NCBI GenBank assembly: GCA_964187785.1
Contig: OZ076413.1
Span: forward strand, 46,376,001-46,440,000
Direction of reading: 5' to 3'
DNA from: Amphiscolops sp. MND2022
Lineage: Eukaryota
Length of the DNA: 64,000 nucleotides
Shown here: piece after piece, positions 20,319-64,000 of the stretch
How the letters are laid out: the number at the start of each line of letters is the position of its first letter
How positions within the stretch are numbered: the stretch's first letter is position 1
The notes under the pieces: model-generated
Databases searched by the model: none
Told to the model about the DNA's origin: nothing
Seen by the model: only the letters and a program-made list of their open reading frames with translations
Program-made: the position numbers and the translations under genes

Positions 20319-22508
20319 CATTAGAGTGCACAGGCAAGCCTTATTTGCTCAAAGCGCAACATAGTGCTTTCAATATCTTGGATTCCACGACCATACCTTT
20401 AACCGTGCAAAATTGGCAAATTACGTCATTTGTCCCGGATTCCACGGATTTAGTCGTGGATTCCAGTAACAAATGCTTAGCTGTACGACTTTCGGCATGC
20501 AGCGGTGTCCCGGATTCCACAAAAACGTAAGTTTTGCGAAATGAACCAATCAGATTGCAGAAATCATAAATTTCCTGTATTCCACGACTTTATGCTTGAC
20601 GCGATACGCGGCATATTTTCTTGAATTAATTTCAAGTGGAAGACTGAACAAACAATATTATGCACACTTTTTCGTATATTAATTCAAAATGATTCAGACA
20701 ATCACACCAATATCACACAAAATTTTGAGATTTTTCAGTTTAGTACCAGTTTTGAAAAAACTGCCAGATCATCACAATCTGCCATTATTTGATGACATGC
20801 TTTAATTTTGGTACCAGTCATGAGTATCTCTCTTTGTACTTCTTGGACTTTTCGTGTCAATCAAAACAATTTCCTTTGATATAAGATTGATTCAATTCAA
20901 GTTCTTCTGCCTTTCTAATAATGATCATGCAAAATGAATATTAAATAACACAAATAATCGTATTTTTCAGTTTAGTACCAGTTTTGAACAAACTGCAAGG
21001 TCATCACAATCTGCCATTATTTGATGACATGCTTTAATTTTGGTACCAGTCATGAGTATCTCTGTTCGTACTTCTTGGATTTTTCGTGTCAATCAGAACA
21101 ATTTCCTTTGATATAAGATTGATTTAATTCAAGTTCTTCTGCCTTTCTAATAATGATCATGCAAAATGCATATTATATAGCACAAATATTCGTATTTTTC
21201 AGTTTAGTACCAGTTTTGAACAAACTGCAAGATCATCACAATCTGCCATTATTTGATGACATGCTTTAATTTTGGTACCAGTCATGAGTATCTCTCTTCG
21301 TACTTCTTGGACTTTTCGTGTCAATCAAAACAATTTCCTTTGATATAAGATTGATTCAATTCAAGTTCTTCTGCCTTTCTAATAATGATCATGCAAAATG
21401 AATATTAAATAACACAAATAATCGTATTTTTCAGTTTAGTACCAGTTTTGAACAAACTGCAAGGTCATCACAATCTGCCATTATTTGATGACATGCTTTA
21501 ATTTTGGTACCAGTCATGAGTATCTCTGTTCGTACTTCTTGGATTTTTCGTGTCAACCAGAACAATTTCCTTTGATATAAGATTGATTTAATTCAAGTTC
21601 TTCTGCCTTTCTAATAATGATCATGCAAAATGCATATTATATAGCACAAATATTCGTATTTTTCAGTTTAGTACCAGTTTTGAACAAACTGCAAGATCAT
21701 CACAATCTGCCATTATTTGATGACATGCTTTAATTTTGGTACCAGTCATGAGTATCTCTACTCGTACTTTGGGTCTTTTCGTGTCAATCAAAACAATTTC
21801 CTTTGATATAAACTTGAAATAATTTAAGTTCTTCTGCCTTTCTAATAATGATCATGCAAAATGAATATTATATTACACAAAGATTAGTATTTTTCAGTTT
21901 AGTACCAGTTTTGAAGAAACTGCCAGATCATCCCAATCTGCCATTATTTGATGACATGCTTTAATTTTGGTACCAGTCATGAGTATCTCTATTCGTACTT
22001 TTTGGATTTTTCGTGTCAATCAGAACAATTTCCTTTGATATAAGATTGACTTAATTCAAGTTCTTCTGCCTTTCTAATAATGATCATGCAAAATGAATAC
22101 TAAATAACACAAATTTTTAGATTTTTCAGTTTAGTACCAGTTTTGAACAAACTGCCAGATCATCACAATCTGCCATTATTTGATGACATGCTTTAATTTT
22201 GGTACCAGTCACGAGTATCTCTATTCGTACTTCTTGGATTTTTTGTGTCGATCAAAACAATTTCCTTTGATATAAAATTGAATTAATTTAAAATGATTAC
22301 TCAAAATCAGCGGACCAATCAGAGAGCAGCGGCAAAAGTGTCATTATAGCAGCAGTATTGGCGTGGAATCCAGGACAAGCACTGTCGTGGAATCCAAGAC
22401 ACGCTTAGCATCAAAGAGAAGTTTTGTCCTGGATTCCACGACTTTTCTCAATTTTCGTGTCCCCGATTCCACGAAAACAGCAAAATAGCTTGCCTGTGCA
22501 CTGTAATG
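20319..22508. mobile_element. Non-autonomous CACTA/EnSpm (CMC)-like DNA transposon, copy 1
   Basis: 21-bp TIR CATTA(G/C)AGTGCACAGGCAAGC, 2-bp TSD gt/gt, repeated GGATTCCAC subterminal motifs in both orientations, no transposase. Confidence 0.8.
20731..22290 (+). repeat. 232-bp satellite, about 6.7 units, with partial dimeric higher-order structure
   Basis: Unit starts at 20731, 20963, 21195, 21427, 21659, 21890 and 22122. Confidence 0.95.
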
Positions 22509-43680: not shown

Positions 43681-44338
43681 TAGTTTAGCTGACCAAGGAT
43701 CAGTCAGTTGATACTCTCGATCACTCAAAATTCTCGAGAAAACAAAATTGTCCCCATCACGATAATTTTCGTGACTGGAGAATGCGCCGTATTGGTTAAA
43801 CACCGTGCTTTATCCATTTCACTTGAACTTTCCAAGTGGTTGTTGTACTGACCTACATTAAAAACCAATAGTATTTAGATGTTTATAGAATGTTCTAGAA
43901 TGTACATTTATTTAATATTGAATAACTGTAAAACTCCACTCCTTCAGAGAAAGAAAACTAATAATCAGTGTTTAGTCGATTTCCTTTTTACTCCTCTTTT
44001 CAGACCTCCGAGCTATAAAAGAGCCAGCTAGCTAGCCTTCGTCTAATAACTTAGCTCTGTAACATCTAGAGAAAGACCACCACCACTGAAAATAAAAGAC
44101 TCTTTGAAGCAGCACAATTTGGTAAAAATTCCTTCTTTTCTCCGCTGAATGCTTTCTCTTCTCTCATCAATACAACACCTACCACTCCTTCTCTTTGAAT
44201 TTTTTTTGGATTGCAGTGAATTTTTTGTAAATTTCCTAGAAAATCTAGTCTGTGACTTTCTGAATTTCTTCAATAAATACATCATTGTTAGACAAAAAAA
44301 AGTTCTTCATCTGAAATATATCAAAATTTTCTCCAATT

Positions 44339-44568
44339 CCGGTTTATCACGTTTTTCTATAAACGTTGACACGGTTTTTCTTGCCTTGCCGGTTTATCAC
44401 ATTTTCTAACACGTTGACACGGTACATTTTCAGACTGATTTATCAACAGTGACACAATTCTGCTCTTCTTTTCAGACTGATTTATCCACCGTGACACAGT
44501 TCTGCTCTTCTTTCCAGACTGATTTATCCACAGGGACACAGTTCTGTTCTCCATACTGATTTATCACA
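44339..44568. repeat. Short tandem arrays: 2 x 49 bp and 3 x 42 bp sharing a tttatc(c)ac..gacac core
   Basis: 49-bp units at 44339 and 44388; 42-bp units at 44431, 44473 and 44515. Confidence 0.85.
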
Positions 44569-45372
44569 GCAATCCGGAAGCTTGTTGAAACAGTTTTGTC
44601 TGGTTTATCAAGGTTTTCTAACACCTTTGACACAGCAATAAATTCTTCAATCCTGCTATCTTGAACGTCAGGTGGACTCCTGGTGTAATAGGTGACTGAG
44701 TGCATGCTAGACTCATCTCACCTATAAGCACATACGTTTCAAGATCAAGTTCGTGTTGGCAGAAAACCTGGATTTTCTATTTTTTCGTTTTGGATCCACT
44801 TTCTGATGAAACACTTCAAAATTTACATTCTGAATTAGAATCAGAAATCCATAAAAAGCAACCAAGTCTCTCGCTACCATTCTTCTGTCGACAAAAATCC
44901 CAATATACTCAATAATTTTAAAGTATCCTCACAAAACATTTAATTTTAACAAAGCTACACATAAAATTTTAACACAACTCTTTTGCCCTAAAATCTAAAA
45001 CAGGACACCCAAATAAAAAACACACTGTAAAGTTAGTTTTATACTTTCAGGCACCCACAATTCCTATTCCCTCCCGTAAGACTTAGACAATCAGACCCAC
45101 CTAGTTTTAACTTGCGTAGTCTGATTCTAAGGCTGACTAAACACCTTAGTTATGTTTAAACGTCATTAGGGAGAATCTAGAGGACACCGAACTACGTTCG
45201 AATCTTCGAAATTCTCAAGAAGTAAAAGTAAAAGTCAAACACACAAAAGATCAAACTTTGGTCTTGATCAGTATTGATCCGACGTTGGATAGTGGACGTT
45301 GATTGTTCAGAGTTCCGCTCCTTTAGTCTTAAAACAAACAACCCACCTAAAATTAAAATTCTCTTAGCTTTT

Positions 45373-45500
45373 CTGGACGTGTCAGTAACCTTATGTTAGA
45401 CACCTTAATTAAAGTCCAACTCTAAAATACAACTCTTACTGGATGTGTCAGTGGCCTTATGTCAGACACTTTAATTCAATCCAGACTTAAACCACAACTC
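45373..45500 (+). repeat. Degenerate 66-bp tandem duplication, each unit with a gtgtc...gacac stem
   Basis: Units start at 45373 and 45439. Confidence 0.7.
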
Positions 45501-46066
45501 AGATTCTGTTAGCTATCCATTGAGGTTGAATACAAATTCTATTGCATCCGCTTCTTTCTTCTCTATCCCTAACAATACCAAAACAATACCAACACTTCAG
45601 ACAATTTCATATTTCTTTCATTTTATAATAATATATGAGCTCAAACACACATAACCAAACTTCCGACATATCACCTCTCTCTACTACTTCACTACCTGTT
45701 CCTATACATCTAGTTCTACATCAACTCAGTCAATACGCACAATTCTTTTTCTATCTTTTAGACCAACAACGAAATCACCCAAGATCACCAACTTAATTTC
45801 TAACAAAAACATAACTTCATACATATTAACACAAAATAGAATATACTAATGAATACCTTTGACCACTACCATTTACACAATAGGAACAATCAATGTTGCA
45901 ACTAGTGTTATAATTATAATAAACTCTCACTATTGAATCTAGACAATCTATAATGTGGGAAAAAGTTACCACAAAAACACTTATCACAACTTACACATTT
46001 TCTATTTTATTCTTATTTTGTATCCTGTTGGAAAAGATACTTACAACAATAAGAAGTAATCTCTAA

Positions 46067-49000
46067 CATGAACTCCTCAATACCTTCCCCTTCACCTTTT
46101 GAGATACCTTATATTAAAAATGCAAAAGTAGTAAAAACTGAAATAAGCATTTTTAAATAACATTGTTTACAATTATTCTCAACCACTTTCATGTGAAAAT
46201 GACCCCACAGACTTGAAACAATTCCTCTTATTAGAGAACATCTGGATACATACCTCTTCTATATTAGACATAGATCTACAACTGTCTCTACGGAATATCC
46301 ATCTTTCCAAATTACTTTTCCGCAACAAGAAACCTCGTCTATTCAAACATATAGAAGAACGATAAACCCAATTATTCTCCAAATTCCTGTTAAAGAAGTT
46401 TTCTATGCTTTTCTAAAGAGAGTAAAAGAATACAACTTAGCACTTGAAAACCCAAAATATAGCCCAAATGCACTTGAAGAACTTGAACAATATATACACA
46501 AGTTTGAGGTGGAAGATATAAAAGAATAAGTATAACTCAAAATAATCCTCCTCATTGGTTACAAGCAGATATACTACGAATACACAATTTCCTATATCAT
46601 TATTTCAAAGATATAACATTAAACGAACAAACAATACCTCAAACTAAAGTGATAACCTTATTTCTTAGAAAATGTTTCAAATTTAATTATCAACTATTAT
46701 GGTCAAAACACGATCAACGTGCTTTCGCAGCATTTCATAATCATTTTACAGCTGACGAATGTTTACCGTTCATCATAGATAAACAAAATGAACAGCCTTA
46801 CTTTTTCAAACTAGATAAAATAAAACAACAAACCGTGGATTTCTTATCTTTTGATCCTCGTTTAATCACAGAAAACAATTTTCATGATGATAATAGACCT
46901 TATCGTTTCGAACAGAATATACAAGAACAACTAAACCTAATTACCAACAATGACAATAACAATGAAGAAGACGACAATAACAAGGAAGAATACATATTTG
47001 AAAACCAAAATGAAATTCGCAATGAAGATATCGTACCCCACATAAATGAAAGCAATGCAAGTGAGTATACCACTCCAGAACCTACAACTTCAGCACAAAA
47101 TGCATCACAAACTGAGACATCAACAACCTCTCATTTTGTTAGAATTCCAACTAGGGTTGTTAGTCCAAGACAAAATACACATGATCCACAATCATACTTA
47201 GACACATCTCCACATCGTAATTTCTCCTTTGATCTTCCAACTCACCCAGATGAAGTAGTACAAGATGAAACTAAAAATATAACTTCTACCCGTGATACTT
47301 CTGTTAATGTTTTATCACCTACACAGATTATTTCTAAAAATACACGAAATACAACTCGATCTATATATGATCCTCCATCAATTCCTTCTGTTTTTCAGCA
47401 GTCGAATAAAACAATTCAATCAGAAAATAATCGTAATAGTAACCAACAAACTTCTAGTTAACACTATGATCCATTTAGATATTCCATCTTTCCAACATCT
47501 AATACAAATATTCAAACAAACAATACTCAAAATGTTTATCAACCTAAAATTACTAATTTAATGACACAACACCCATAGGAAACATTTATTACAAACAAAT
47601 TCCTCACAAAGTAATTTTGCTTTACAAAATCAAAGAACATCTTATTCAAACACTGTACAACCTCCTCAAAGAAGATCCCAAAATCCTCCACTTTAGCATA
47701 TATCTACTGACCCTCTATATCAAATGAATCAACATTTAACTTACAACCCTACTACAATTTCACCACCCGTAAACATGATACAACATGTAGTTCCCCCACC
47801 TCAGTATACGCCAATACAACAAGATAACATCATAAATACTTCAGCTTCAATACCAGAACCTATGAAACCTTTGGAGGGTTTACACCCCAGAAGATTATTT
47901 ACAGCAAGTTTAAGCAAGACTGACCTTTCCATAGGTGAAGAACCTCAAAATATTCCTATAAAATATAGGTCAGTGCATAATAGACGCATGGCTTATATAC
48001 AATGTTCTTTAATTGAAACAGCTCTTGATTGGTACACTAATCTCCATATATAATATACACAACAATGGACTTCATTTGTACAACTGTTTAAAAAACAATT
48101 TTCATCTAAAAAACAGCCTATTACGCACAAGTAGAAGCTATGTCACTCATGAAAAAAGATAATGAAACAGTACGCCATTTTGCTCTTAGAGTACAAAAAT
48201 TAGTTAAAAAGGGATGGTGCAATGAAAGTACATCTACCATAAATCTCAAAAACAATGAAATTTTCACAAAAGGATTACCTAAAAGACTTAGCGCACAAAA
48301 GACAAGTTAAACATGTATCAAGAGTACTTGAACCATCAATACCATTTCACACACTCGTTCGACATGTTGATTCTGAGGACATCGCTAATGAAAAAATAAG
48401 AACAAATGACCTAGCTTTAGAAATAAACAAAGTTTCAATTGAAGATGATACTAACAACGAAGAATCCGAAAATGACCATATAATGGTTACTCAATCTGGA
48501 GGCCCGAATAACAAAAGCAAACCAGCCTACAAAAAATATTGTTGTTATTGTCATAAAAACAATCATCGTATTTCAAATTGTTATCAGAAACAAAGCGAGG
48601 AAGAGTATCAAAGATAAAAAAATCAGAGATCAAGAACTCCTCAACAATCCTTTGTACAATACTTCCGTAGTAAACCCAGTAATTCACAAGAATATCGAAA
48701 TGAAAATAAAACTGATTATTCTTCTAGAGATAACGACCGTAAAAGATATAATCAAAACAACTACTCCTACTACAATGACCAATATAGAAATAACGACAGA
48801 TACCGAAGCAACAGTAGAGATTATTCACAAAATACTTATCGATCTAATTCTCGACAAAGATATTCCGATAGATCTCAAAACCCATACCCATCTAGATCCC
48901 GATATGACTATCATTATCAAAGAAGAACTCCATCCAGATCTCCATATAGATCAACCTATAGAAACAACTCCAATTATAGATATAATTCACGATCAAGATA

Positions 49001-49250
49001 TAGATCTCATCTCTATCACAAGGAAACTCTTTTAGACGATACAATTACCCGTATATATCTCCATCTAGACCAAAAGATTACAGATCACGATCTAGAACAC
49101 CCTCACAAAACAGACAACAAAATAGAATAAATCAAGTAGATGTTAAATCTACCAACGACAAAGATAGTACTGAATTTGAAATTCATACATGCCAAATAAC
49201 TGAAATTGCAAATACAATTACTCCTTATAGTTGGTTTCATCCACTATATG
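46067..49250 (+). pseudogene. gag: gag relic of the outer gypsy
   Basis: N/Q/T-rich fragments, LIETALDWYTNL, knuckle YCCYCHKNNHRISNC (48538-48580), and an R/S-rich tail. Confidence 0.7.
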
Positions 49251-50329
49251 TACATGCTTCTGAAGGAAAAGACAACATATTACCTTCAAAATTAAAAATC
49301 CTATTCCTCCTATTAAATTAGAAATCCTATTAAATATAATATTCTTGGAACACCTTTCTTCAAGAAAATTATTCAAAATATAGACTTCCAACAAAATATT
49401 ATGACATACAAAGAACAACATCCAAAACTCCCTACATAACACTTTTCTCAACATTTACAGAAAAGGATTACCCATATATCTCATACATTTATACTATTAA
49501 ATGTAAAGAGCCAATTCACTTCAAACCAAGATCAGGAAAGACTTTACACTTCCCAACCAAAAAAATTATCTTAACATGCACTTTGAACTGGAAGATAAAA
49601 CGAAATTTTATCCATCAATTCCATATACATACTTCTTACAAAAATTTAAATATATTTTTCACTTCTTAGACATGATAGTCAACGACAAAAACAAAGACTC
49701 CTGCTCAACAGTAATTCGAAATTTTTTATCTCACCCAGCTACACTACCACGAGGAATTATTGGATATATAGAGATCCCTATTATTCAAACAACACCTCTC
49801 CATTTTAGAATTCATGCTGTAAACTCGCTTATTCATTCAGTAATACATGCCTTTCTTCCTGATACTACCATTCCAATTGACAAAATGACTACACATATAT
49901 GAATTTATGTACTCGAGTAATCCCACAGTCCTTATTAGAAATCAACAAAATAGAAATAAATGATAAAACACTTCAATTACCCATACCTTCTGTCACAGGA
50001 AATCTTCGACCCTCAGATAAAAATAGAAAAGATTTTCCTTCACTACCATATACTGCAGAAAATCAACAATTTATAAAAAAAGTTCAACTTTGAATATTTA
50101 GATTTGACTGATACTGTAAATATGAATATGTAAACCTCTGCAATGTTCTTTTCATCAATCAAAATTGTTACGCTAAACATCGAAATGACGTAGTAAAAAT
50201 TTCTACTCCATCCAGAATTAGAATTAGAGAAAATTGTAAACTTCAAACACAAAGACCCTCTAAAGTACCAATTCATTACAGAGATAGACTAAACAAACTC
50301 TTAATAGAACTTAAAAAATAAAACATATT

Positions 50330-50527
50330 AAAACAAATTGCTCCACGCCAGATGAAAAACACACTATTGGAACAACATTTTTAAACCCTTCAATCATTAT
50401 CCCCAAAGGAGACGCAATAAAAGTTGTTTTAGATGCTAGACATTTAAACTCAAACACTAATCAAGAACTTGAATCTTAGCCCATTGAAAGTTTATCCCCT
50501 CAATTAGCTAGAGCTAACAAAAAATAC
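50330..50527 (+). pseudogene. pol: Outer gypsy RT, left part
   Basis: PKGDAIKVVLDARHLNSNT...QLARANKKY, ending at the insertion point. Confidence 0.85.
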
Positions 50528-51249
50528 TATAGCGAACCAGGCACTGCCATAGGCGGAGAGAGATGGCGAAAGGCAGATGCTTGGAAAGTAAATTATTAAA
50601 ACAACTTGCAACGCAACAATAACTTGTATCTTTATTATTTATCGCTCTTGAGAGTTCTTGAGAGTGCTCGAGAGAGCAATATAATGATTTCAAATATTTA
50701 ATCCCCTCTCTGCCGCTCAGCCGCAGCACTCCATTTCTACAATGTTTACATTATTAAGTAACTTGAGGCGCTTTTTAATTTCATTTATAAAAGAGTTGGA
50801 GACGAATTTCTTCTTATTCTTTACTATCGCGAATGCTTTCCCCACATTCCCCTCGTGTGCAATAAAATTATTAAACGTTAAAACGTGAAAACGAGTTTCT
50901 GTTGCAGATGCTTTCCCCACATTCCCCTCGTGTGCAATAAATAATTAAACGTTAAAAATTGAAAACGAGTTTGAGAAAAAGATTCGAACATTAGCAAACT
51001 CAACCGCTGAAATGTAAGTTGCTTCCCATACTAGTAATTTTATCTTGAAATTTTATCTTATCTGTTCACTAAATGAAGATAACTTAACTAAATTTTCTTG
51101 TCATAAATTAACTTTTCCTATTTCTAAAATTCTTTTCGTAGAAATCTTATAGAGATAACCCAATCATCAAAACACCAGCAATCGCCCTGCGCATTCGAGC
51201 TATAGTAACATTAATAGCAATATTGAACTAGGAAAAAGCGATTGTTAAA
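50528..51249 (+). repeat. 5' LTR
   Basis: Starts TATAGCG, ends GTTAAA. Contains a TATA (tttataaaag, ~50805), an internal ~90-bp duplication with AATAAA, and a candidate splice donor GTAAGT at 51014. Confidence 0.95.
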
Positions 51250-51250
51250 T

Positions 51251-51268
51251 TGGTGACAAGGGTGGGAT
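51251..51268 (+). promoter_or_regulatory. Primer-binding site, tRNA-Leu-like
   Basis: TGGTGACAAGGGTGGGAT, 1 nt after the LTR. Its complement ATCCCACCCTTGTCA-CCA fits the ATCCCAC...A-CCA end typical of tRNA-Leu. Confidence 0.7.
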
Positions 51269-51947
51269 ACCTCTATAAACAGTAAATTTTAATATTTTTT
51301 CAAGACTATTGTCAACCCCGTATTGTCCGGCCCTGACCAAACCTCCCAAAGTAAAGCCTAGCCTGCCTTGGCAGTGTACAACAGGAATTAGATCCTAGTA
51401 GGCCTTTTAAACTCGCCTCCACGGCTGATTAGAAAAGGAACCTTTCCCTTTGTTAATTTCACGTTTCTCACGAAACCTAATGGTTAGTAGCGTGTAAAAC
51501 AAACGGTCCAGTAGTAATTTGTTTCTCCATCAACCTGAATTAAATTAGTGAGAGAATTGAAGCGGATTTAAACTGTTTTCAAGTTTTTTTTATCCCGGTA
51601 AAATTAAATGTTCCATTGGACCTAAGCACTGAGAAAGCCAGTCTCAATATAGTGCTCCTCACCAGATGCAGCTTCTATGAAACAGGAAGGTCATAGTGCC
51701 CAGTATAAGAATCCAAATTAGCTTAAGGGGCGCTGGTGAGGGAAGGCTGCGCAGTCTGTTATCAGGCTAGCGTTACTAGCTGAAGACAGGTTCCAAGGAA
51801 CTTATAGGAGTCCTTACCGGGCGTGAAAATTTCGATGGAGAAACAATGAACTAGTAAACCGTATTAACTCTTCTTCCTAAATCAAATCTTTTCCAAACTT
51901 TGAGCGTCTAAATAACGTGTTTCCTATTATTTTCACTTACATCATCA

Positions 51948-52217
51948 ATGCCTTGCTCACACGTTCAAAACACTCAGTTACCACTATATGTAATACCCCA
52001 GCAAAACTACCGACCCCCTAGTCCACCACCGTCGTACGATCATGATAGAGAGACTACTGTTTTTTCGCCGTGTGTCATGTTTTTATTAGTTTTTGTTAAT
52101 GCCCTAGCACTTGTCATAGTAGTTGTAGCGATTTGTGGACTCTCCTTTGAAATCAGCAAAGAGAACATAACTTGCCGTAGGGCCGAAGCCCTAACTGTTG
52201 ACTATCACCAGAGCTAA
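51948..52217 (+). CDS. Accessory sORF1: 89-aa single-pass membrane protein with LPLY and PPSY motifs
   Basis: ATG start; LPxY at aa 11-14, PPxY at aa 27-30, hydrophobic helix at aa ~42-65, sequon NIT at aa 73-75. Confidence 0.65.
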   Translation: MPCSHVQNTQLPLYVIPQQNYRPPSPPPSYDHDRETTVFSPCVMFLLVFVNALALVIVVVAICGLSFEISKENITCRRAEALTVDYHQS

Positions 52218-52225
52218 AATTTAAT

Positions 52226-52633
52226 TTGTGTTTTTCGATGTATTCTTTTAGTATCCCGGTTTCGATTCTCACTAACGTACCGTCAGAGAACCTCATAATA
52301 CCTTGTTATTTTTGCCAAGCAAAACTTTTCAAAATCCCTTTCTCGCATCGACCAGAAGGACGTTTCACCGCGCACCAACTAACTTTTCACATACAGCTAG
52401 AGGCGGTTCATTATTGGCAGCATAAAAACACTTACGAAAAGTCTCCTTACAGTCCTCTGGACCACGCGACAAGTGTAAAGGCATCAAGTGCCTCCTTTTT
52501 CCCGCATTTAGCTCAAAGTTGGTATTCACAGATTGAATTCATTGCCTCCCATGTCTCTGATTCCTCCCTGTTGAGATTTCATGACTGCCAAATGCCAAAT
52601 TTATTTTATAGTACTCCTATGCTCCGCCGCTAA
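52226..52633 (+). CDS. Accessory sORF2, up to 135 aa, unknown function
   Basis: Open frame filling the gap between sORF1 and gag, with a CYFC motif and several His residues. Start codon uncertain. Confidence 0.4.
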   Translation: MCFSMYSFSIPVSILTNVPSENLIIPCYFCQAKLFKIPFSHRPEGRFTAHQLTFHIQLEAVHYWQHKNTYEKSPYSPLDHATSVKASSASFFPHLAQSWYSQIEFIASHVSDSSLLRFHDCQMPNLFYSTPMLRR

Positions 52634-52681
52634 AACATTTGAACCTACAGACTCCGAAATTTCGTAACCGTTTGAATTAAA

Positions 52682-53905
52682 ATGGCAACGCCATCTACAC
52701 CGTCAACTACAGGTACTTCCACCGCCTCAGTGTCGACACCCTCGCCAGCAACAACGACAACAAGTGCGAGTGTTAGTGCCGGTGGGAGTAGCTCGGCTAC
52801 TCCGGGGCACTCGTCAGCTTCCACAAGCACAACAATGAGTACTACGACAACTCCCACAGCCTCATTTTTTACTATCCCTGGCACGTCTAGGCCACCTCCG
52901 AATACACCATATATTGCCCCGCTCCCGTCATGCTTGATGCCCGAATCCTTCACGGGTAAGGGCGATTTTGAAGATTACCTTCAACAATTCAACACCGCAG
53001 CACTTTTATCAGGCTGGTACTCGACCGCGCACGATAATCGCCCCCATTACTTCGCATTACGCCTGAGAGATAATGCGCTCCACTTCTACACAACTCTGTC
53101 CGCCGCCCAACAAACAAATTTTGATCAATTGATTGACGCTTTCCGACAGAATTACACTACCAATGGGGACATTTTGAAGGCCAGGTTGAAAGCTGCTAAA
53201 CAGCAGCCTAACCAGGATATTTCAGCATTCCTGTGTGACGTGCGCACATTAGCTCGACGGGCATACCGAGACACGCCTGGCCTGATTGACCCTATGGTAA
53301 TGACATGTTTCATAGAGGGCCTTAAAGATAAGACGCTCCGGTTGGAGTTGCGAAAGGCCAAACCAGCAACAGCTGATCAGGCTTTAACGTTGGCGATGGA
53401 ACTCAATTCGTTCCTAGAAATTGAATGTGGGGGCGCGAAAGCGTCTCAACTCGTCAATCGGGTATCTACTGACGATACTCCTGCAAGTGATCTAATGACG
53501 GAGTTTGTTCGAACTCTACGGCAAGAACTGCAGAGGAGCCGACCACAGAATAGTGGTTAAGGGCCTCAAGGGGACGGTAGGCGCAACAATAGCCCCTCAA
53601 ACCTAAGACCCCGATCTGAAAGTAACGATTCTACTAAGAGTAACCCATCTGTCCGCTTCCAGTCTGCCCAGAATTCCTCCAATTATCGAAACAACGAAAG
53701 TGGGAACAATAAGCGAAACAGAGAGAGTTCACCTCATCCTTCAAAGAAAAGGGATGACAAAACAACAGAAAGTAACAAGAAAATGTGTGATCGTTGCAAG
53801 CGTACTAATCACGCAACAAAGGACTGCAAGGCGTGTTACAATTGCCTAAAGGTCGGTCACTTTCGAAGGGACTGCACCGCCGATAAAAAGAAACCTTTAA
53901 ACTGA
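52682..53905 (+). pseudogene. gag: gag, 407 codons with one premature TAA at 53558
   Basis: S/T-rich N-terminus, PESFTGKGDFEDYLQQF capsid-like region; the frame continues past the TAA to CDRCKRTNHATKDC and CYNCLKVGHFRRDC, then TGA at 53903. Confidence 0.92.
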
Positions 53906-53945
53906 ACGAGTCTACGCTCACGGGTCGAAGCGCAGACGAGACCAC
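53896..53945 (+). promoter_or_regulatory. -1 ribosomal frameshift signal
   Basis: T TTA AAC heptamer (53896-53902) just before the gag stop, followed by a gtct-a-cgct/agcg-c-agac stem. The -1 frame is open into protease. Confidence 0.85.
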
Positions 53946-56310
53946 CGAAAATGGCCCACAAATTCAGACGCTCAACTCTGTGATAGATCACAGAAGTGTT
54001 TTTGTCCAGTTATCTATATGTGGTAAGATAATCGAGGCTGTGTGTGATAGTGGAGCAAGCGTGTCTTGTCTGAGTTCGAATGTCTTTGACCAAATTAAAC
54101 AGTTACAGAAATTAAAGCTGGAGCCAACGCAAGAAAAGCTCGTGGCAGCTAACAAACTACCAATTCAAACGCACGGCAAAGTGCTTCTGTTGTTGAAAAT
54201 TGGACCTAAACAGTTCGAACATGTTTTTCATGTCTTGGAACATTCAGAAGCCGATTGTTTGATCGGATTAGACTTCCTAAAGAAACATAGGTGTGACCCA
54301 TTGATTTCAAAAGACGTACTCCGGTTGGATGATGACACGCAAGTGCCCTTGTATCATCGAGAAATCGATGAGGGAACGACTTCCGTATTTCGAGTAGTCG
54401 TATCAGAGACCGTTTCGGTACCGGCAGGTCACTCGATGATAGTGCCTGCGCTTATGCAAGACTGGAAACGTCCGTTGCATGAAACAGTGTCCATATTTGA
54501 ACCGAATGATCGGTTCGATGGGACAAAGGAGGCAGTTGCTCCAAACATGCTGTTCAACTTGGCCGAGCCAACCGTACCCATGACGGTGGAAAACACGGGC
54601 AATGAACCACTCACAATTTATGAGAAAACGACATTGGGCACCTCTGAAATCCTTCCCATTAGAGCCCTGAGGAGCATCTCTCCTCCGAAAAGCGAAGCGA
54701 TGGGACGTGAGAAGCTGGACCCAGCTTATGATTTGAAATATGTGATTGACTCTGTCAGTCCCGAAATACCGCTGAAATTAAAAAAACAATTCGGGGATCT
54801 TGTCAATGAATTTGAAGATGTGTTCTCCAAGAACCAATGGGATATAGGTCGTTGTGACGCCACTAGTCACAAAATCGATCTCCTACCTGGCTCAAAACCA
54901 AATAAATTACCGAATCGCCGCATGCCATTGCACTACAAAGAAGACCTGCAAGAAAATATAGATGCCTTCTTGGATAAACAATTTATTGAACCCTGCCACA
55001 GTCCATACAGCGCACCGGCAATGCTCGTACCAAAAAAAACGACAAGCTGCGCCTAGTAATAGATTATAGGCAATTGAACAATCAAACGATAAAGTCCTGC
55101 TGGCCGATTCCGTCAATTGAAGAAATTTTCGACACGCTGGAGGGAAGTGCGTTCTTCTCAACAATCGATATGTCTTGGGGATTTTATCAAATACCCATGG
55201 ATGATAAAAGTCAAGATTATACTGCTTTCAGTACACCGTTTGGCTCTTTCAAATGGCTCCGGATGCCAATGGGCCTTTCGAACAGTCCACCTATGTTTCA
55301 GAGTTTAATGGAAGTAGTTCTTTCCAAGTTGATCTGGAAAACTGTCGTCCCGTACTTAGATGATTGTATCATTTTTGCGGCAACACCCGACGAACATATC
55401 CGTAGGATTCGAGAAGTCCTAGTTCGCTTCCGGGCAGCGAATCTGAAAATTAATCCTCTGAAATGTGAGTTCTTTAGAACAAAAGTACAGTTTCTGGGCC
55501 ATGTCATTAGTAAAGATGGTCTACAGGTGGACCCCGAGAAAATTGCTGCTGTCAAACAGTTCCCCGTTCCGGCCATACAAACTCATGTCAAATCATTTCT
55601 GGGACTTTGCTCATATTATCGGCGATATGTGAAGAATTTCGCCGATATTGCAAGACCACTACATAAGGCCAGTGAGACAACTACCACCTTCAAATGGACA
55701 CCTGAAGCACAAGACGCTTTCGACAAACTGATTAACGACAACACCAATTTTAGCTTTTCCATCTATGAAAGAGCCGTTTATTTTGTACACGGATGCTAGT
55801 TTGTCAGGAATGGGGGCAGTCTTAGCTCAAGTTCAAGACGGAAAGGAACGAGCTATTTGTTATGCTTCCAAAGCTCTTTCACGGTCTCAAATGAATTACT
55901 CAGCTACTAAACGCGAACTCCTGGCGGCTGTACATTTCACACGTCACTTTAAACATTACCTACTGGGCCGTAAGTTCATTCTCAGAACTGATCACAGCGC
56001 TCTGCGCTGGTTGCATAACTTCAAAGACCCAGATGGTCTTGTAGCTCGTTGGCTTGAAAAACTAGCCCAGTTTGACTACGATGTGGAACACCGACTAGGG
56101 AAATCCATCGGTCATGCCGATGGACTTTCTCGAATTCCTACAAAACTGGTTTTGCTCGTCTCAGAGGAGCCCAACGTCGCGGGGGTTGAACAAACAGGCG
56201 AGTGGCCTAACGCTCAATCCGCGAGAGATATCAATGACATACCGCCCGCCCCGGCTCCCATTCCGGGGGACGTCTTAGAACGTCTACCTTCCAAGTGTAG
56301 AGTGATTTGA
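53896..56310 (+). pseudogene. pol: pol: protease, RT and RNase H (two frameshifts, stop at 56308)
   Basis: VCDSGASVSC (protease); IDYRQLN, LRMPMGL and YLDDCII (RT); LYTDASLSGMGAVLAQ, ELLAAVHF and RTDHSAL (RNase H). Breaks at ~55035 (A-run) and ~55740. Confidence 0.95.
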
Positions 56311-56373
56311 TCCAAATCATCGGAACCCCTACGGCGAAGGGACGTTTTTGAAGTGGCAACGGAACCGAAGAAT

Positions 56374-56787
56374 TACACCGAGATCAATGGCGACTTGTTT
56401 GACTCAAAGGACTCAATAGCCCATTGTGTCTCAGCGGATTTCAAGATGAGTTCGGGGATAGCTCGGTCTATCAAACGGAAATATCCCACTGTGCATCCGG
56501 GACGTGTCCGATATTACGATGTCCCTCTGTGGACTCAGTGGCTACCGGAAACCAAGAGGTATATTTATCACCTTCTGACGAAGGATCGTTTCTACCATAA
56601 ACCGACATATGCGGCTCTTCGAGCGCATTTGGAACGCATGCGTGAACATGCCGAAGCACACGGCGTGATGGCGATTAGCATACCTCAAATTGGTTGTGGC
56701 CTTGACCAGTTGGAATGGCCTTTGGTACGCACCATAATCCAAGAAATCTTTGAACCCTCGGACTTTCGCATCACTGTCTACTTTCTT
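56374..56787 (+). CDS. TARG1/OARD1-class macrodomain embedded in pol between RNase H and the integrase region
   Basis: GDLF..DSIAHCVSADFKMSSGIA, YIYHLLTK..YHKPTY, IPQIGCGLDQLEW and ITVY align with human OARD1 motifs; same reading frame as the RNase H ORF. Confidence 0.93.
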
Positions 56788-56859
56788 GATCCTTCCACAC
56801 CCGTTTTGAACCATGATGAAACTGAAATACTCGAGGCGCCCGATACAGAGACCAACAAC

Positions 56860-57112
56860 CCTACCGAAAACATCCGCAAAGGACAAGATGCTGATGAATC
56901 GTTACACTTAGAACGAGAGTGGGTACGACGAGGCCGTTTACCACAAAAAAATGATTTGAAGGGATCACCCGAGCTCGCGTGGAAGCTGTATAATCAATTT
57001 CACAGTCTATACCTCTTGAATGATGTATTATGTCGGAAATTTGAACCCACCGGTGGCGATCTACCGTTCCTACAGCAAGTAGTGCCTCCGGCCCTTGTAG
57101 ATGATGTCCTGT
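56860..57112 (+). pseudogene. pol: Pre-integrase segment truncated by a deletion
   Basis: IRKGQDAD..EWVRRG..LYNQFHSL...VLCRK..QQVVPPALVDDVL normally precedes the integrase HHCC finger. No HHCC or DDE core follows. Confidence 0.8.
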
Positions 57113-57130
57113 CGTCCCGTTCTCTTTCAG
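57112..57130 (+). promoter_or_regulatory. Candidate env splice acceptor
   Basis: cgtcccgttctctttcag| ends at 57130, 16 nt before cgccATGc. Confidence 0.6.
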
Positions 57131-57146
57131 AAAATTCCCAATCGCC

Positions 57147-59414
57147 ATGCCTCCTTGTGCATTTTGGGTTGTGTGTCTTCTTACCATAGACATTCCTCTC
57201 TCGTGCGCTCAGGTTCAGTTCAGTACTCATCTCAACGACAACTTGGAACAACCTGTTTTCAAAAAGGGTGCTGCTTTCGTATTCAAATACCAAGCAGTCA
57301 CCTCTGAGAGTGAGAGTAAGGTTCGTGTATTTTCCCCTTTTCCTCAGATGCCAACAATCAGCCTCACCCGTGCTCTAGCAGTTGTAGAGGCCTTTAAAAC
57401 CAAACCCCGCGGCATCGGTTCCATGTATGTTAACACACGCTGTGAATTTACGAACTTCAACAACACTTACACCCTACTTCTCGAGCAACTAGAGACGCGA
57501 GTCCGCTTTCTGCAGTTGGAACTAGCAGCCGCTACAGAGGAGGAACCCACCTTGATGGAAGTAGCGAGATCATTTATTCCACCTAGCATGAAGAAAGATA
57601 GTGCACCTAAACGACAACGTCGTGCTTTTTGCGCTATCGCCGCAATAGCAGCTGGAGCGGGAATGATTCTGGGTGAACCCGTCAAAGAGGCAGCGTGCAC
57701 CGCGCTCTCCATTTTCAATTTATGCCGCAATGACGATGCCCTGTCAAAAGATGTCGATCAAATTATGACCAAACAGAAAACAATAATCGAAACATTGCAA
57801 CGCGTACAGAGTCAAAATGATCAAAACTTCTTCTTACTGGGAAATGAAATCAAGGGCACTCAAGAGAGCGTCACGAATTTCAGGGATAAAGTGGGAGAAC
57901 GCTTCCAGCAAATTGAATATTATTTAGTGAACGCTACTAGATACTTGACTGGAAGTAGTCTAGAATGCGATAAAGTAATAGTTCGACATATTCATCTTTT
58001 GCAGTATATTCGTAATTATATTTATCAATTGGGTACCTTGTACACACATTTGAAGTCGTATCGTGCCGCTTTTTACGCTTATCGTATTTCGCTCTTCACG
58101 ACAATTTCATCCTTAGCTGGTGGTTATATTACACCACAATTTCTGCTTCCGAAACAGGTTGCTGAAATTGTCAAAGAGTTGGCCGAAGACGAAGTTCTGC
58201 GGGGAACTAAATTGTCTCCTGCAATTCGCCCTGGTTTTGAGGCAATTCACTACGAGATTCAACTTGTCCTCGAAGTAACTCAGATACCTCGTGGAATCTC
58301 GGTAATACTTGGGATCCCGATGAATTCAAAATCGTCGACATTTGATATCTATCACGCGACCCCTTTATATCAGCCCAACAATGACCAGAAAACGGCCTCT
58401 CTTTTCAGTTTCACAAATCCGTTCCTCGCACTCTCCACCGACAATAGCAGATTCGCAGAGCTAGGAGCCAATACGCTGCAACAATGCTCGGGTAATAACA
58501 GAATAAAACTTTGCCGGAAGGGTTTCTCTACTACCACGGACGAAACCCTGTTGTACCTGGGCTCTCTGTTTTATAACTATGACATCCCAGCCCTGCGAAA
58601 TTGCGAGGTTAAAACCGTTCTGTTTCCGGACGCTCCTCAAGCCTTCTATCTGGCCGAAGGGATGTACCACATCATCTCTCGAGCCCCACATCTTCAGATA
58701 AAGAACGATAGTCGAGCTACAGACCTGTCCATCTCTACCATAAATTGTCAGGCTTGTGTGATGCGCCCCAGCTGTTCTAGTATCATTTCATTTAATCAAG
58801 GAGATCTCGTTTTGTATCCTGATATGGATTTTTGTGAAACAAACCCTGAACCTTTTCTAGCTTCCATTGAATTAACCCCCTCACTTAATAAGGTCTTTTC
58901 GCATGTCCCATCGATTAGTAACGCTGATTTTCATGCCTATTCTCTGGGTGAAGCACGTCAGTCAGTCCTAGGTACTTTACGCCTTGAACTGGCTGAGCTA
59001 CCAGACGTCGAACAAATGACTGAAGAAACTCTTGACGAGTTAACTCAACCAATCGCTAGCTACTATTCAGCAATCTCGCCAGCCACGTCAGCAGCCTTGG
59101 AATCTTATCTGCCCACTCGAACGGCTATCCTTATGTCAACTCTGTCGATTACTATCTCGCTGTTAACATTCTCGATAAGCTTCACGCTTTTCCGACGACA
59201 GTGGCGACGCCTCTTTACTAATCCACAAATATTCTTTCGGGGTCATTCAGGACGTTTCATCCACATTGTCAACACCGCAAGTGATGAATATGAAGAAACG
59301 GATCCAACTTTTTTGTACCTGACCGTTATGGAGTTTCAAGCTCTTGTTTCTCTGGCAAGAGAAACAATTAATCAACCTATACCTCCTAACACGAATTACA
59401 CTACACTTTTCTGA
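57147..59414 (+). CDS. env: Envelope glycoprotein, class I fusion protein (baculovirus F / errantivirus Env-like), 755 aa, intact
   Basis: Signal-peptide-like N-terminus; furin site RQRR (aa 156-159) followed by hydrophobic AFCAIAAIAAGAGMILG; heptad region; GYITPQF, VILGIPM..FDIYHATP and a Cys-rich region; TM from aa ~659; cytoplasmic tail. Confidence 0.9.
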   Translation: MPPCAFWVVCLLTIDIPLSCAQVQFSTHLNDNLEQPVFKKGAAFVFKYQAVTSESESKVRVFSPFPQMPTISLTRALAVVEAFKTKPRGIGSMYVNTRCEFTNFNNTYTLLLEQLETRVRFLQLELAAATEEEPTLMEVARSFIPPSMKKDSAPKRQRRAFCAIAAIAAGAGMILGEPVKEAACTALSIFNLCRNDDALSKDVDQIMTKQKTIIETLQRVQSQNDQNFFLLGNEIKGTQESVTNFRDKVGERFQQIEYYLVNATRYLTGSSLECDKVIVRHIHLLQYIRNYIYQLGTLYTHLKSYRAAFYAYRISLFTTISSLAGGYITPQFLLPKQVAEIVKELAEDEVLRGTKLSPAIRPGFEAIHYEIQLVLEVTQIPRGISVILGIPMNSKSSTFDIYHATPLYQPNNDQKTASLFSFTNPFLALSTDNSRFAELGANTLQQCSGNNRIKLCRKGFSTTTDETLLYLGSLFYNYDIPALRNCEVKTVLFPDAPQAFYLAEGMYHIISRAPHLQIKNDSRATDLSISTINCQACVMRPSCSSIISFNQGDLVLYPDMDFCETNPEPFLASIELTPSLNKVFSHVPSISNADFHAYSLGEARQSVLGTLRLELAELPDVEQMTEETLDELTQPIASYYSAISPATSAALESYLPTRTAILMSTLSITISLLTFSISFTLFRRQWRRLFTNPQIFFRGHSGRFIHIVNTASDEYEETDPTFLYLTVMEFQALVSLARETINQPIPPNTNYTTLF

Positions 59415-59523
59415 AACCAACACCTAAACATATTCTTCTTTCTGTCTTTCTATCAATGTCATCATTTGTTTCATTTTTCAGCAAACTAGACACACTCAAC
59501 TCAGTTGATGAAAGTAGGATAGG

Positions 59524-59872
59524 TTCTAACTTTGTTAGAAGTCTCCCAACGCTTGCGTTGGTGTTTGTCTTACCACTTCATTGTGTGTAGCCCAATTTGG
59601 TGTATAATTAATTTGAGGACGTCCCTCAAACCTTCTCACTTATTGCCTTGATCTCCCCGTTAGTATGCACCTTTTTAGCCTGTCACAAGTATCCTAGTCT
59701 GTTTCCCATGCAGCTAGTGTAGTTAATGAGATTATCGTCTCCTAGTTGCTTATGTATATCAACTAGTGCGCTTAAGTTCATCACTCTTGATGTATCCTAG
59801 TTGTGTCCCAACCTCAACTAGTGTAGCAAAATAACAGTCCCAGTTTCCCAGTTGTATCTCAAACGCAACTGG
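59524..59872 (+). other. Hairpin cluster including a four-unit stem-conserved, loop-variable array
   Basis: Array stems at 59694-59717, 59742-59766, 59797-59821 and 59848-59872; further hairpins at 59524-59540, 59546-59561 and 59612-59630. Confidence 0.85.
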
Positions 59873-59976
59873 TGCAGCCGCCACAAGTTACTCCTCATCT
59901 ATGTTAGTCATTTGGCTACAGCGTCATTCGAATAAATGTTCTTCGTCAAAACTAATCACACGCATTCTAAAGGAAG

Positions 59977-60999
59977 GTGTTTCTAACGATTCGTTGTTAC
60001 AGGTACAAAATTGATGCCGCAGACAATTCTCCAGCTCCATTCTTGCTCTCCGATGGGCGGGTACACCATCTGGCCCGTGGCCACATCGTCCGTGTCCTAG
60101 ATGTTATGGACTATCGTGTCATACGATGTAACCCACATCGCCAAACAGTCATGATCCAAAAGATTAATTCTAATGACCGCCCCTTTGGCAGAAACGCTAC
60201 TGAACTCTGGTTGCCACCCCCGTTTAAATCGACTATTGCAATCGATGTAAATTTTGACCCAATTCCAATGGAGTGCGACTGTCCATCCCCCTTGCCACCC
60301 CGAGTATACCCAGATATGGTTGATGCGACAGTGGAGGCCTCCTTAGGACAGGACGAAAGTCTCGAGTTTTTGACCGAGGAGTTCAGTTCGGTACAAGACC
60401 TCCACAGTCAACTAGAAGAGGCTCGAAAAGCCTCCGAAGTTACATTCAACTTAATGAAAGAAAGTGTGGAGATGAGCCGCCAAAGAGCAGAGCATATTAC
60501 GGCTTTGGAGACAGAGATAGAGGGTTTTAAAGTTCGTCTGAAAAACTTAACGTAGGAAAATGAGTCGCTACTCCGTCACTTATTAGAGCAAAGTGCCGAA
60601 TTAAGCACTTTACGTCTGGAAACAGCAACGACGAGTAATCACCAGTTAACCACCAAAATGCTCTGTCACCAGATGTCTACATACCCCCCATCACTAGACT
60701 ACGTTGACAACAACCTTTTATTCCATCTTCTTTGCAGTCCGCCGACCTCAACCACAAAGGAATTGAAGGAAAATGCCCACCATTTGTTGAGGTTGATTCA
60801 CCCGGACAAAAATCCTTCTGTCTCCCCAGCGGTTGCCAAATTGGTACCGATAATCAAGGAAGCCCGGAATATCCTAACAGACCCGACCCTCAACAGGATT
60901 TACCAATGTTGTGGGATACAAGGTGTAAGACGTGCGCAAAGGCGCCTTCGGACCTGCATGGACTGTGATCCGCATGTCCGCAAATGGCTGGCCCCTTAG
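59977..60999 (+). pseudogene. Accessory ORF4: unknown N-terminal domain, coiled coil, C-terminal DnaJ J-domain (one in-frame TAG at 60553)
   Basis: ORFs 59977-60555 and 60658-60999 share a frame and the sequence between them is open. J-domain LFHLL...KELKENAHHLLRLIHPDKN...IIKEARNILTDPTLNRIYQCCG, with HPD at 60799-60807. Confidence 0.85.
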
Positions 61000-61018
61000 T
61001 TGCGAGGACGCAACCTTC

Positions 61019-61032
61019 AAAAGAGGGGGTGG
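61019..61032 (+). promoter_or_regulatory. Polypurine tract
   Basis: aaaagagggggtgg immediately before the 3' LTR. Confidence 0.8.
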
Positions 61033-61756
61033 TATAGCGAACCAGGCACTGCCATAAGCGGAGAGAGATGACGAATGGCAGATGCTTGGAAAGTAAATTA
61101 TTAAAACAACTTGCAACGCAACAATAACTTGTATCTTTATTATTTATCGCTCTTGAGAGTTCTTGAGAGTGCTCGAGAGAGCAATATAATGATTTTAAAT
61201 ATTTAATCCCCTCTGTGCCGCTCAGCCGCAGCACTCCATTTCTACAGTGTGTTTACATTATTAAGTAACTTGAGGCGCTTTTTAATTTCATTTAGAAAAG
61301 AGTTGGAGACGAATTTCTTCTTATTCTTTACTATCGCGAATGCTTTCCCCACATTCCCCTCGTGTGCAATAAATTATTAAACGTTAAAAATTGAAAACCA
61401 GTTTCTGATGCAGATGCTTTCCCCACATTCCCCTCGTGTGCAATAAATAATTAAACGTTAAAAATTGAAAACGAGTTTGAGAAAAAGATTCGAACATTAG
61501 CAAACTCAACCGCTGAAATGTAAGTTGCTTCCCATACTAGTAATTTTATCTTGAAATTTTATCTTATCTGTTCACTAAATAAAGATAACTTAACTAAATT
61601 TTCTTTGTCATAAATTAACTTTCTCTATTTCTAAAATTCTTTTCGTAGAAATCTTATAGAGATAACCCAATCATCAAAACACCAGCAATCGCCCTGCGCA
61701 TTCGAGCTATAGTAACATTAATAGCAATATTGAACTAGGAAAAAGCGATTGTTAAA
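61033..61756 (+). repeat. 3' LTR
   Basis: Direct repeat of 50528-51249 with about 15 differences. Confidence 0.95.
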
Positions 61757-61760
61757 ATAC

Positions 61761-64000
61761 AAATCAACTATTGATTTGATGTATGCATACGCTCATGCCC
61801 CATTAGACGAAGAAACAATCAAATTTACAGGATTTTCATCCGGAGATAAATTGTATACCTTTATCGGTGGATTCTATGGATTATAAGGACTCCCAAATTT
61901 TTTCACAAAACAAATGTCAACTTTCTTTCGAACACTTATAGACAAACGTTCTGCGTTAGTATATGTTGATGATATATTTTTATTAGCAGACGAAAAACAA
62001 GAAATGTTTGAACTTATCAAAGAACTCCATAAAATAGCAACAAAAGAAAATCTCAAACTTGCACCTGAAAAATCATTTTATATGTTACTTAAAGTAAAAT
62101 TCCTTGGACATGAAATAGGGAACAACACAATTAAACCAATCCCATCAAAAATTGAAGCCAGCAAAAGAATCCCATCACCAAAGGAAAAGAAAGATGTCAT
62201 GCAATTTTTGGGCAGTGTAAACTTTTATTCAAAATTCATTGAAAAACTGCATATAAATCTCAAACCATTCCATACCTTATTACATGATGATGTTAAATTT
62301 CAATGGACACCCGAATTAGAAAAAATATTTCAAGACGTTAAAAACGCAATGACAGCAGGAACTGAATTAACCATACCCAATACAAAACATCCATTTTTCA
62401 TAACAGTTGATGCTTCCTTAGTTGGTTTAGGCGCAGTCCTATTCCAAATGAATGAAGAAAATAAAATGAGAGTTATTTCTCACGAATACTTAATACACAA
62501 GAACAAAAATTATCAACACTAGACAGAGAACTCCTCGCAATAGTTTATGCATTACAAATTTATGAATTTCTCATCATTGGATCCCCTCTTCCAATATACA
62601 TCTTAACAGACCACAAACCCCTATTACACTGTTTTGCAAAAAAGGAAACCTTAGCCCAAGATTTTTATAGAGCACAAATGCACTTAACAAAACTCTCCAA
62701 ACTAAAAATTATTCAAACTCCTGGAAAAAATTAAATACATGCTTTCTAGAACTTTCACAAAAGAACAACTTCAAATACATCAATTACGACACAAACAATT
62801 ACCACCCCAAATCGATTTCTCTATCATGAAAGATAATCAACTCAAACCCGTACACTATTTAGTAAAACATGAAGAAATCAAATATAATCAAAAAAATGGT
62901 TGCCATCCAATTCTCGCTGATTATGGCGAAGACCAATTTTCCATCCGTATAAACAACAAAGGAGAAGACATTTATATAAAACCCTTAGATTCATTTTCTT
63001 TTCAATCTATTGTTCCATTTGAATCCAAATACGAGAGACCTCCAAAGAATCAAGCAAAATCACTTTTACAACAATCAACTATCGTCAATGACACTGATAT
63101 TCTTAGTGATGAAGATGAACCAAATCAATCACAAAAAACGAAGAATCAAAACACAAACACATTGAGAGAACAAACACTAGCAATACAGTACCCCACTAAA
63201 TCTAATTACTGTAATGAACAAGTTCCATTTTTTGATCCAACTTTCTTCAAATACAAAAGTATATTTTCAATATTTCTTCCTACCAGAAGACACTCAAAAA
63301 ACAATTGAAACTATAAAATCTCAACAAAAACAAGACCCTGTCTTACAAAAAGTTTACCATTGGTTAAAGACTAATAAGAGACCTTTCCGAATAGATCCAA
63401 CAATAGCAAGTAATTCCTCCCTATCAGTTTACTACAAACTCTTCAATCAACTGTACATCAACCATGATACAAAAATCATTCATATAAATTACCCTAACTT
63501 TCATGATTCAAACCCTAATCAAAAAGACAAAATATATTTACCATTTAAACTCTTTCATGCAGCTTTCAATAAACTTCATGCACATGGACACTCTTGAATT
63601 AAAATATCCATAAAAGCTTATAATCAATTTTATTTTCTACCATATTTAAATAAATGGATGTCGATTTTCATTCACGACTGTATTGAATGTCAACAAAACA
63701 AACACATCAATCAAAAAATTCAAACTGCAACAATACAAACTTTTTCAGAAAATGCTTCATATTTCAATTACCTAATATCAATTGATACAAAAGGACCTTT
63801 AAATCAATCATCAAAACAAAACTCAAACATTCATGTGATAGTAGACGCTTTCAGTCATTTTGTAGTAACAGTACCTGTTAAACAGAACAATGCTCAAAAC
63901 GCTGTCACTTCCCTATTACATCATTGGATTACTAAATTTGGACCTCCCATATCTTTAGTTACAGACCGTGGTTCAGAATACATTAATTCTGAACTTGCAA
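61761..64000 (+). pseudogene. pol: Outer gypsy RT (right part), RNase H and integrase relics
   Basis: KSTIDLMYAYAHAPLD, FYGL*GLP, VYVDDIF, ITVDASLVGLGAVL, RELLAIVYAL, IDTKGP, VIVDAFSHF and LVTDRGSEY. Confidence 0.92.

Follow-up and report, generated by a model that had tools for sequence, protein, structure and literature searches.

A small open reading frame (ORF) upstream of gag in an env-bearing Ty3/gypsy element very probably encodes a functional protein, judging from its composition and its conservation in distant relatives. The ORF lies in a 64-kb window (the whole stretch of DNA that was analysed), where it runs from ATG to TAA at 51948..52217 on the forward strand, as do all stranded features described below. 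It specifies a candidate single-pass membrane protein of 89 amino acids, designated P0001; other P numbers denote matches from our searches. We interpret it as an accessory gene of the element and as a candidate membrane adaptor for Nedd4-family ubiquitin ligases, a reading to which we assign a probability of roughly 45%.

The N-terminal part of the protein carries two PY motifs: LPLY, of the LPxY type (aa 11-14; 51978..51989), and PPSY, of the PPxY type, within a proline-rich stretch (aa 27-30; 52026..52037). These are followed by a hydrophobic helix at about aa 42-63 (52071..52136), assigned from Kyte-Doolittle hydropathy and AlphaFold2, and then by about 26 C-terminal residues that include an N-I-T sequon of doubtful use (aa 73-75; 52164..52172). 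A first-pass annotation, made from the DNA alone, had claimed both motifs ahead of one transmembrane (TM) helix and a sequon behind it, and all are present as it described. Prediction likewise bears out the single helix. The hydropathy profile has one peak (best 19-residue mean, KD19, of 3.13) and none at the N-terminus, indicating no apparent signal peptide. The AlphaFold2 model, built on a seven-sequence alignment, consists of a single helix over residues 41-88 (pLDDT 89-94 over aa 41-60) and a coil at the N-terminus, with a pTM of 0.32.

Searches of Pfam, PDB and the ESM Atlas gave no match that explains the protein. A Pfam hit to SF1-HH (E 0.091) fell below the cut-off and was rejected, a PDB sequence search with a seven-member profile returned no matches to E 10, and two Atlas clusters found with P0002 as query scored 0.80, a level that one in three shuffled proteins also attains, and were not used. 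Among 5000 dinucleotide shuffles of the 1432-nt leader, an ATG ORF of at least 80 aa appeared in 512, one with a TM-like segment in 35, one with PPxY in 6 and one with both in none; of the 94 ATG ORFs of at least 60 aa in the window, the ORF at 51948-52217 alone combines TM and PPxY, the criteria in both cases having been chosen after the ORF had been seen.

The host element

The element spans 11.2 kb (50528-61756) and is a defective Ty3/gypsy copy with an F-type env, flanked by a 4-nt target-site duplication, ATAC (50524-50527 and 61757-61760). No second copy of it, or of the small ORF, was found within the window. The 5′ LTR (722 nt; 50528..51249) and 3′ LTR (724 nt; 61033..61756) agree at 707 of 721 aligned bases. 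The LTRs begin with TATA and end with TAAA (50528-50531, 51246-51249), not with TG...CA, and an internal repeat of ~65 nt is present in each. By its position immediately 3′ of the LTR, a sequence starting with TGG (51251..51268) resembles a primer-binding site (PBS); comparison with the PMC13524379 supplements gave no match of 12 nt, and no tRNA gene lies within the window. The polypurine tract is at 61019..61032.

We consider this copy defective because gag (52682..53905; Retrotrans_gag and zinc knuckle in Pfam) has an internal stop at 53558-53560 and pol (53887..57189) is in four pieces. Pfam identifies protease, RT, RNase H and a Macro-like domain in pol of this copy, and no integrase (rve) match. 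The Macro-like domain follows RNase H (56311-57189) and scores 21.4 bits (E 0.00026) against a cut-off of 22; no Macro domain in gypsy-type LTR retrotransposons was found in the open-access literature searched.

The env gene (57147..59414) encodes an F-type protein in which a hydrophobic N-terminus, RQRR at residue 156, a hydrophobic peptide after this site and a TM segment near residue 660 can be recognised. It shows three hydrophobic peaks, and its tail is shorter than that of its 98% identical sibling P0003. We identified 134 Env relatives among 8000 scored candidates, including P0004-P0007 with 73-77% identity. Baculo_F is a weak Pfam match in the window Env and matches 4 of 20 aligned Env members, with a best E of 3.4e-08; PDB matches to entries named ‘fusion protein’ were weak (E 0.003) and ranked below coiled-coil matches. 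Among 28 relatives of near-full-length Env (P0003-P0063), 24 have YPx[VILM] within the last 60 residues, against 2 of 267 ectodomain windows, and often xPx[YF] follows (14/28). We take this motif to resemble a YPDL late motif or a YxxΦ sorting signal. The window’s own Env stops short of it.

An extra reading frame lies 3′ of env (59971..60999). A stop at 60553-60555 interrupts it, and its product includes a DnaJ domain that has HPD and passes the curated cut-off (PF00226, E 5.7e-07). The frame has a coiled-coil-like part, lacks an in-frame ATG early on, and holds a PPRVYPD stretch like that in the P0003 Env tail. CTAAC followed by a CAG ending at 59999, noted by eye and below our acceptor filter, suggests a spliced DnaJ message, possibly from a donor-like GTAAGT in the LTR at 51014.

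The surrounding sequence is A-rich and G-poor (about 44000-50527 and 61757-64000), and the 3′ flank of the element holds interrupted coding sequences for gypsy-type RT, RNase H and integrase. Elsewhere in the window are a tandem array of about seven 232-nt units (20613-22303), a perfect 81-nt inverted repeat with zero spacer (12921-13082), a 1.2-kb tandem duplication within a strongly A-skewed region (16050-18452) and a 100% direct repeat whose copies, 4362 nt apart (7421-7720 and 11783-12082), are a possible LTR pair of another young element.

Relatives and coding status of the small ORF

Protein searches with the small ORF gave seven distinct matches. We kept six as relatives, namely P0002 (97% identity) and the distant P0123, P0125, P0126, P0127 and P0128, and dropped P0124 (E 4.4e-09), a tandem repeat aligning to the hydrophobic stretch alone. 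Compared over aa 1-76, identity to P0001 is 36-53% in the five distant relatives; among themselves it is 52-81%, so they are not independent. PPSY is intact in 4/4 and LPLY in 3/3 of the distant relatives covering the respective motif (coverage starts at the helix in P0128 and immediately ahead of PPSY in P0125), in a set found by score and so biased toward retaining P and Y. The first-pass annotation had staked its reading beforehand on conservation of the ORF and its PY motifs, and both motifs are kept at this level of divergence.

Conservation is uneven along the protein. The best-kept part is aa 1-30, with 59-69% identity to P0001 (20/29, 17/29 and 17/29). Across the helix, identity is 18-41% (4-9 of 20-22 residues) and hydrophobicity is retained, the KD19 maximum being 2.18-3.02 in the five distant relatives. 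Identity to P0001 is 38-54% over aa 64-76, and 0-2 of 9 residues are identical over aa 77-85. The start, the frame (with one whole-codon indel), both motifs and the hydrophobic helix are common to the relatives. Past about aa 85 the five distant relatives run on in differing frames, two of them matching the window’s own frame across the stops, others aligning with the frame of the next ORF; the shared coding unit thus ends near the stop of the window ORF.

Two of the six small-ORF relatives can be paired with Env proteins indirectly, through longest contigs of equal length: P0002 with P0003 (98%; 43,420), and P0123 with P0071 (72%; 557,678), itself 94% identical to a 40-member env cluster. This indirect pairing suggests that the small ORF is common to two families of one element type whose Envs are ~72-73% identical. 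There are 6 relatives of the small ORF versus 134 of env, and they fall in clusters of 1-2 members, compared with 12-188 in the larger env clusters. Gene finders may under-call short ORFs, and this could account for the scarcity; alternatively, the ORF could be restricted to a subclade.

We assessed selection by fitting a neutral nucleotide model to each observed identity, with amino-acid probabilities computed from the protein sequences alone. Substitution quality in the five distant relatives gave z values of 2.23, 2.67, 1.35, 2.01 and 2.62 with kappa 2, and 1.06-2.41 with kappa 4. For comparison, 14 size-matched env slices (75 codons) had z of 0.64-4.55 (median 2.3), and the small ORF’s frame continued past its stop had z of 0.19 and -1.50. 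Under the neutral model at overall identity, retention of the six motif-defining residues had P of 0.005-0.026 per relative. The conservative-change count alone was significant in one of the five relatives (P 0.08-0.55 in the other four).

The counter-reading, that there is no functional gene here and the frame simply happens to be open in a leader whose conservation serves RNA structure or packaging, is improbable. It can draw on the ATG ORF of at least 80 aa found in ~10% of leader shuffles, on leader RNA that folds better than 20 shuffles (z -2.45), on a neutral probability of 0.06-0.13 for the absence of stops in three long comparisons, which is not negligible, and on helix-breaking changes in P0125 and P0126. 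The leader is also alignable outside the small ORF, with 40-48% amino-acid identity in frames beyond it, so part of the small-ORF similarity is plain DNA similarity. Weighing against this are the absence of TM plus PPxY from all 5000 shuffles and the start, frame and motifs shared by both families. In addition, P0123 has 39/74 identical residues, compared with 29.7 predicted from how far its own leader has diverged downstream of the ORF (P 0.019), and changed TM sites stay hydrophobic (z 1.2-2.6).

The gag ATG (52682) begins 464 nt past the end of the small ORF, in a different frame and with stops in between. This interval contains a second leader ORF of 131 aa (52238..52633), with CxxC and several His residues, which P0126 and P0128 match in frame at 46-48%. 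Evidence of selection on it is slight (z 0.01 over 91 aa and 1.97 over 38 aa); were it a gene, the element would have a two-small-ORF leader like that of MDG1. We considered a single long protein joining the small ORF to the next, as P0126 and P0128 do join the frames, but the five relatives use differing frames and this was not supported.

How the small ORF might be expressed is suggested by several features of the leader. Six short upstream ORFs lie between the PBS and its ATG, and a leader scan found no splice acceptor before it that passed the filter; there is an acceptor just before env at 57130. TATAAA at 51274-51279, shortly 3′ of the PBS, could act as an internal promoter of the leader ORFs. 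Reinitiation or shunting could permit translation, as could an internal promoter, each being no more than a possibility. The small ORFs (sORFs) of MDG1 are translated from unspliced RNA (bioRxiv 2025.03.14.642691), and a leader ORF therefore need not be spliced.

Topology and candidate partners of the PY motifs

The first-pass annotation had also argued for type II topology. The sequon does lie C-terminal to the helix, as that argument needs, but it carries little weight, being at the corresponding place in 2/5 distant relatives and ~10 residues from the helix in P0001, where glycosylation usually needs 12-14. Net charge in P0001 is -2 before the helix and +1 after; by the positive-inside rule, which places the positive flank in the cytosol, this leans towards N-out. 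Four relatives with an N-flank have N-/C-flank charges of 0/0, -1/0, 0/+1 and -1/+1. The flanking charges thus give an N-in orientation no support, which counts against an adaptor. On the other side, a C-terminal tail as short as ~26 residues makes tail-anchored insertion likely, with the N-terminus cytosolic. The invariant PY tyrosines also speak for N-in, as their retention would be hard to understand unless WW domains in the cytosol recognise them.

For the adaptor, every step beyond motif conservation is one that we infer. The protein, with no signal peptide and ~26 residues after its helix, would insert in a tail-anchored-like manner, leaving the N-terminus in the cytosol. Tandem WW domains could then bind the unstructured N-terminus through PPSY and, to a lesser extent, LPLY. 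The recruited ligase would ubiquitinate neighbouring membrane proteins and spare the adaptor, whose aa 1-41 contain no lysine (one distant relative of the five, P0126, has a lysine adjoining the helix), and the ubiquitinated neighbours would enter the endosomal/multivesicular-body route. The likely outcome would be that the cell surface loses a host protein, such as a restriction factor or an entry receptor, or that the element’s own Env is routed in this way.

We prefer the adaptor interpretation because the herpesvirus adaptor class is its closest working model. HSV UL56, VZV ORF0, HCMV UL42 and roseolovirus U24, and also MCMV m42, are small and single-pass like the window protein; the same architecture of N-terminal PY motifs, a TM segment toward the C-terminus and no signal peptide is described for UL56, ORF0, UL42 and U24 (PMC5849660). 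According to the same source, these four use PY to bind and relocalise Itch, and U24 reduces CD3 at the cell surface, while KSHV ORF16, which has LPxY only, failed to bind Itch (PMC5849660). The window protein differs in being encoded by an LTR retroelement, in having one PPxY and one LPxY, and in its ~26 residues and possible sequon after the helix, and its PY binding is predicted. Protein, PDB and Pfam searches with it detected no homology to UL56, UL42 or U24. At most, it would work like the herpesvirus adaptors, and it appears not to be a member of the class by descent. Among cellular proteins, Ndfip1/2 and Drosophila Commissureless are also membrane proteins whose PY motifs recruit Nedd4 ligases; they differ in topology and size from the window protein, for which Pfam gave no match above the cut-off.

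The first-pass annotation had offered two functions, a ligase adaptor and a stand-alone budding factor. The former holds up in part, in that it fits the herpesvirus Nedd4 adaptor architecture (PMC5849660); the latter is possible, though we judge it unlikely. On the budding interpretation, a PY-WW contact would bring the ligase and ESCRT to the site of capsid envelopment, supplying in trans what Gag lacks. Gag of the window copy, the one broken copy scanned, has no PPxY, LPxY, P[TS]AP, YPxnL or Gly2; an F-type Env is present, so envelopment would be needed; and late-like motifs seem to reside on membrane proteins of the family. Use of ESCRT by errantiviruses was stated to be unknown in a 2012 review (PMC3383448). 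Against a budding role, expression of the PY-bearing UL56, ORF0, UL42 and U24 in trans lowered retroviral vector yield (PMC5849660), and the YPx[VILM] in Env tails could already serve as a late or sorting signal. The small ORF is moreover not found with most env lineages, and no Gag-binding feature is evident in the protein. A broader version, in which envelopment has moved off Gag and a capsid lacking matrix and late domains is budded by membrane proteins (the PY protein through Nedd4, the Env tail through YPxΦ), we hold to be somewhat less likely again. If true, the element would have its late domain in a gene of its own, that of the PY protein, and this would offer a direct way to study how the membrane of errantivirus particles is acquired.

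We regard as quite doubtful a FAST/sORF2-like cell-cell fusogen oriented N-out/C-in, whose ectodomain would be the proline-rich stretch and whose PY matches would be incidental. A polyproline ectodomain is known from reovirus p15, and the charge bias of P0001 favours N-out. With 89 aa and a single TM, in sense orientation upstream of gag, the protein falls within the size and location of sORF2/FAST-like proteins (60-210 aa), and also within the 63-107 aa range of the insect examples; its N-terminal part of 41 aa fits the 10-50 aa filter used for them (bioRxiv 2025.03.14.642691). Like MDG1 sORF2, it is a small TM ORF of similar length upstream of gag in a Ty3/gypsy element, with a second small ORF adjoining. 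An aromatic residue follows the helix (F in P0001 and P0002, Y in 5/5 distant relatives). Three K/R lie within 15 residues after the helix in P0001, the threshold of the preprint, as in P0002, but the five distant relatives have 0-2, with acidic residues interspersed. The myristoylation motif MGxxxS/T is missing from P0001, P0002 and the three distant relatives with a full N-terminus (0/5), although two of six Drosophila sORF2 proteins also lack one (bioRxiv 2025.03.14.642691). Further points against a fusogen are that both PY tyrosines are invariant where covered, that the tail is merely ~26 aa, and that sORF2 is described in env-less elements (bioRxiv 2025.03.14.642691), whereas this element has env. 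The TM ORF is also the first of the two here, there is no conserved polybasic patch, and the string ‘PPxY’ is absent from the main text of the preprint. The window protein is no typical MDG1 sORF2/FAST protein.

Equally hard to sustain is the idea that the membrane protein is real but uses its PY motifs to bind a WW protein other than a ligase (for example YAP/Yorkie-type, or a scaffold), or that it acts via AP2 like glycoGag: PPxY binds many group I WW domains, but a motif scan found no YxxΦ in P0001, and no long fused form occurred among five all-length search matches. The membrane-anchored viral PY proteins described in PMC5849660 all bound Itch. MLV glycoGag offers a parallel, being an accessory protein with a TM segment whose coding sequence starts 5′ of gag and which clears SERINC5, a membrane protein of the host, but it does so via a YxxL motif and AP2 (PMC9851522), whereas the window ORF carries PY motifs. 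The window ORF is also separate from gag, lying out of frame with stops between; glycoGag runs in frame into Gag.

Place among known retroelements

The plan of the element is, on sequence grounds, that of the F-type errantiviruses described across metazoans by Chary and Hayashi, whose set comprises 1512 elements (PMC13524379). The likeness extends to the LTR-gag-pol-env order, the PBS, an Env with a furin-type site and hydrophobic fusion peptide, and related multi-copy families. The window element differs in its broken gag and pol and in adding the PY-TM ORF, the Macro-like domain and the DnaJ frame after env; the terms ‘macro’, ‘DnaJ’, ‘accessory’, ‘sORF’ and ‘upstream of gag’ are absent from the main text of that study. 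With its Macro-like domain and DnaJ frame, this family seems to exceed in complexity the gag-pol-env elements covered by surveys to date.

Small TM ORFs ahead of gag are known from insect retrotransposons lacking env, in which their products behave as fusogen-like proteins, and a pre-gag ORF is mentioned for HERV-T (PMC5388530). Targeted searches found no report of a small PY/Nedd4 membrane protein in a retrotransposon in the open-access literature covered. Herpesvirus-type PY adaptors and pre-gag TM ORFs are known separately; the window ORF joins the two, placing a herpesvirus-adaptor architecture at the sORF location of an element that already has an env. If Nedd4 binding is true, an invertebrate-type retroelement would have independently evolved either host-surface remodelling, for which Vpu and Nef provide the comparison among accessory proteins, or a stand-alone aid to budding. 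Either reading would give a testable entry to the question of errantivirus ESCRT use, which the 2012 review describes as open (PMC3383448).
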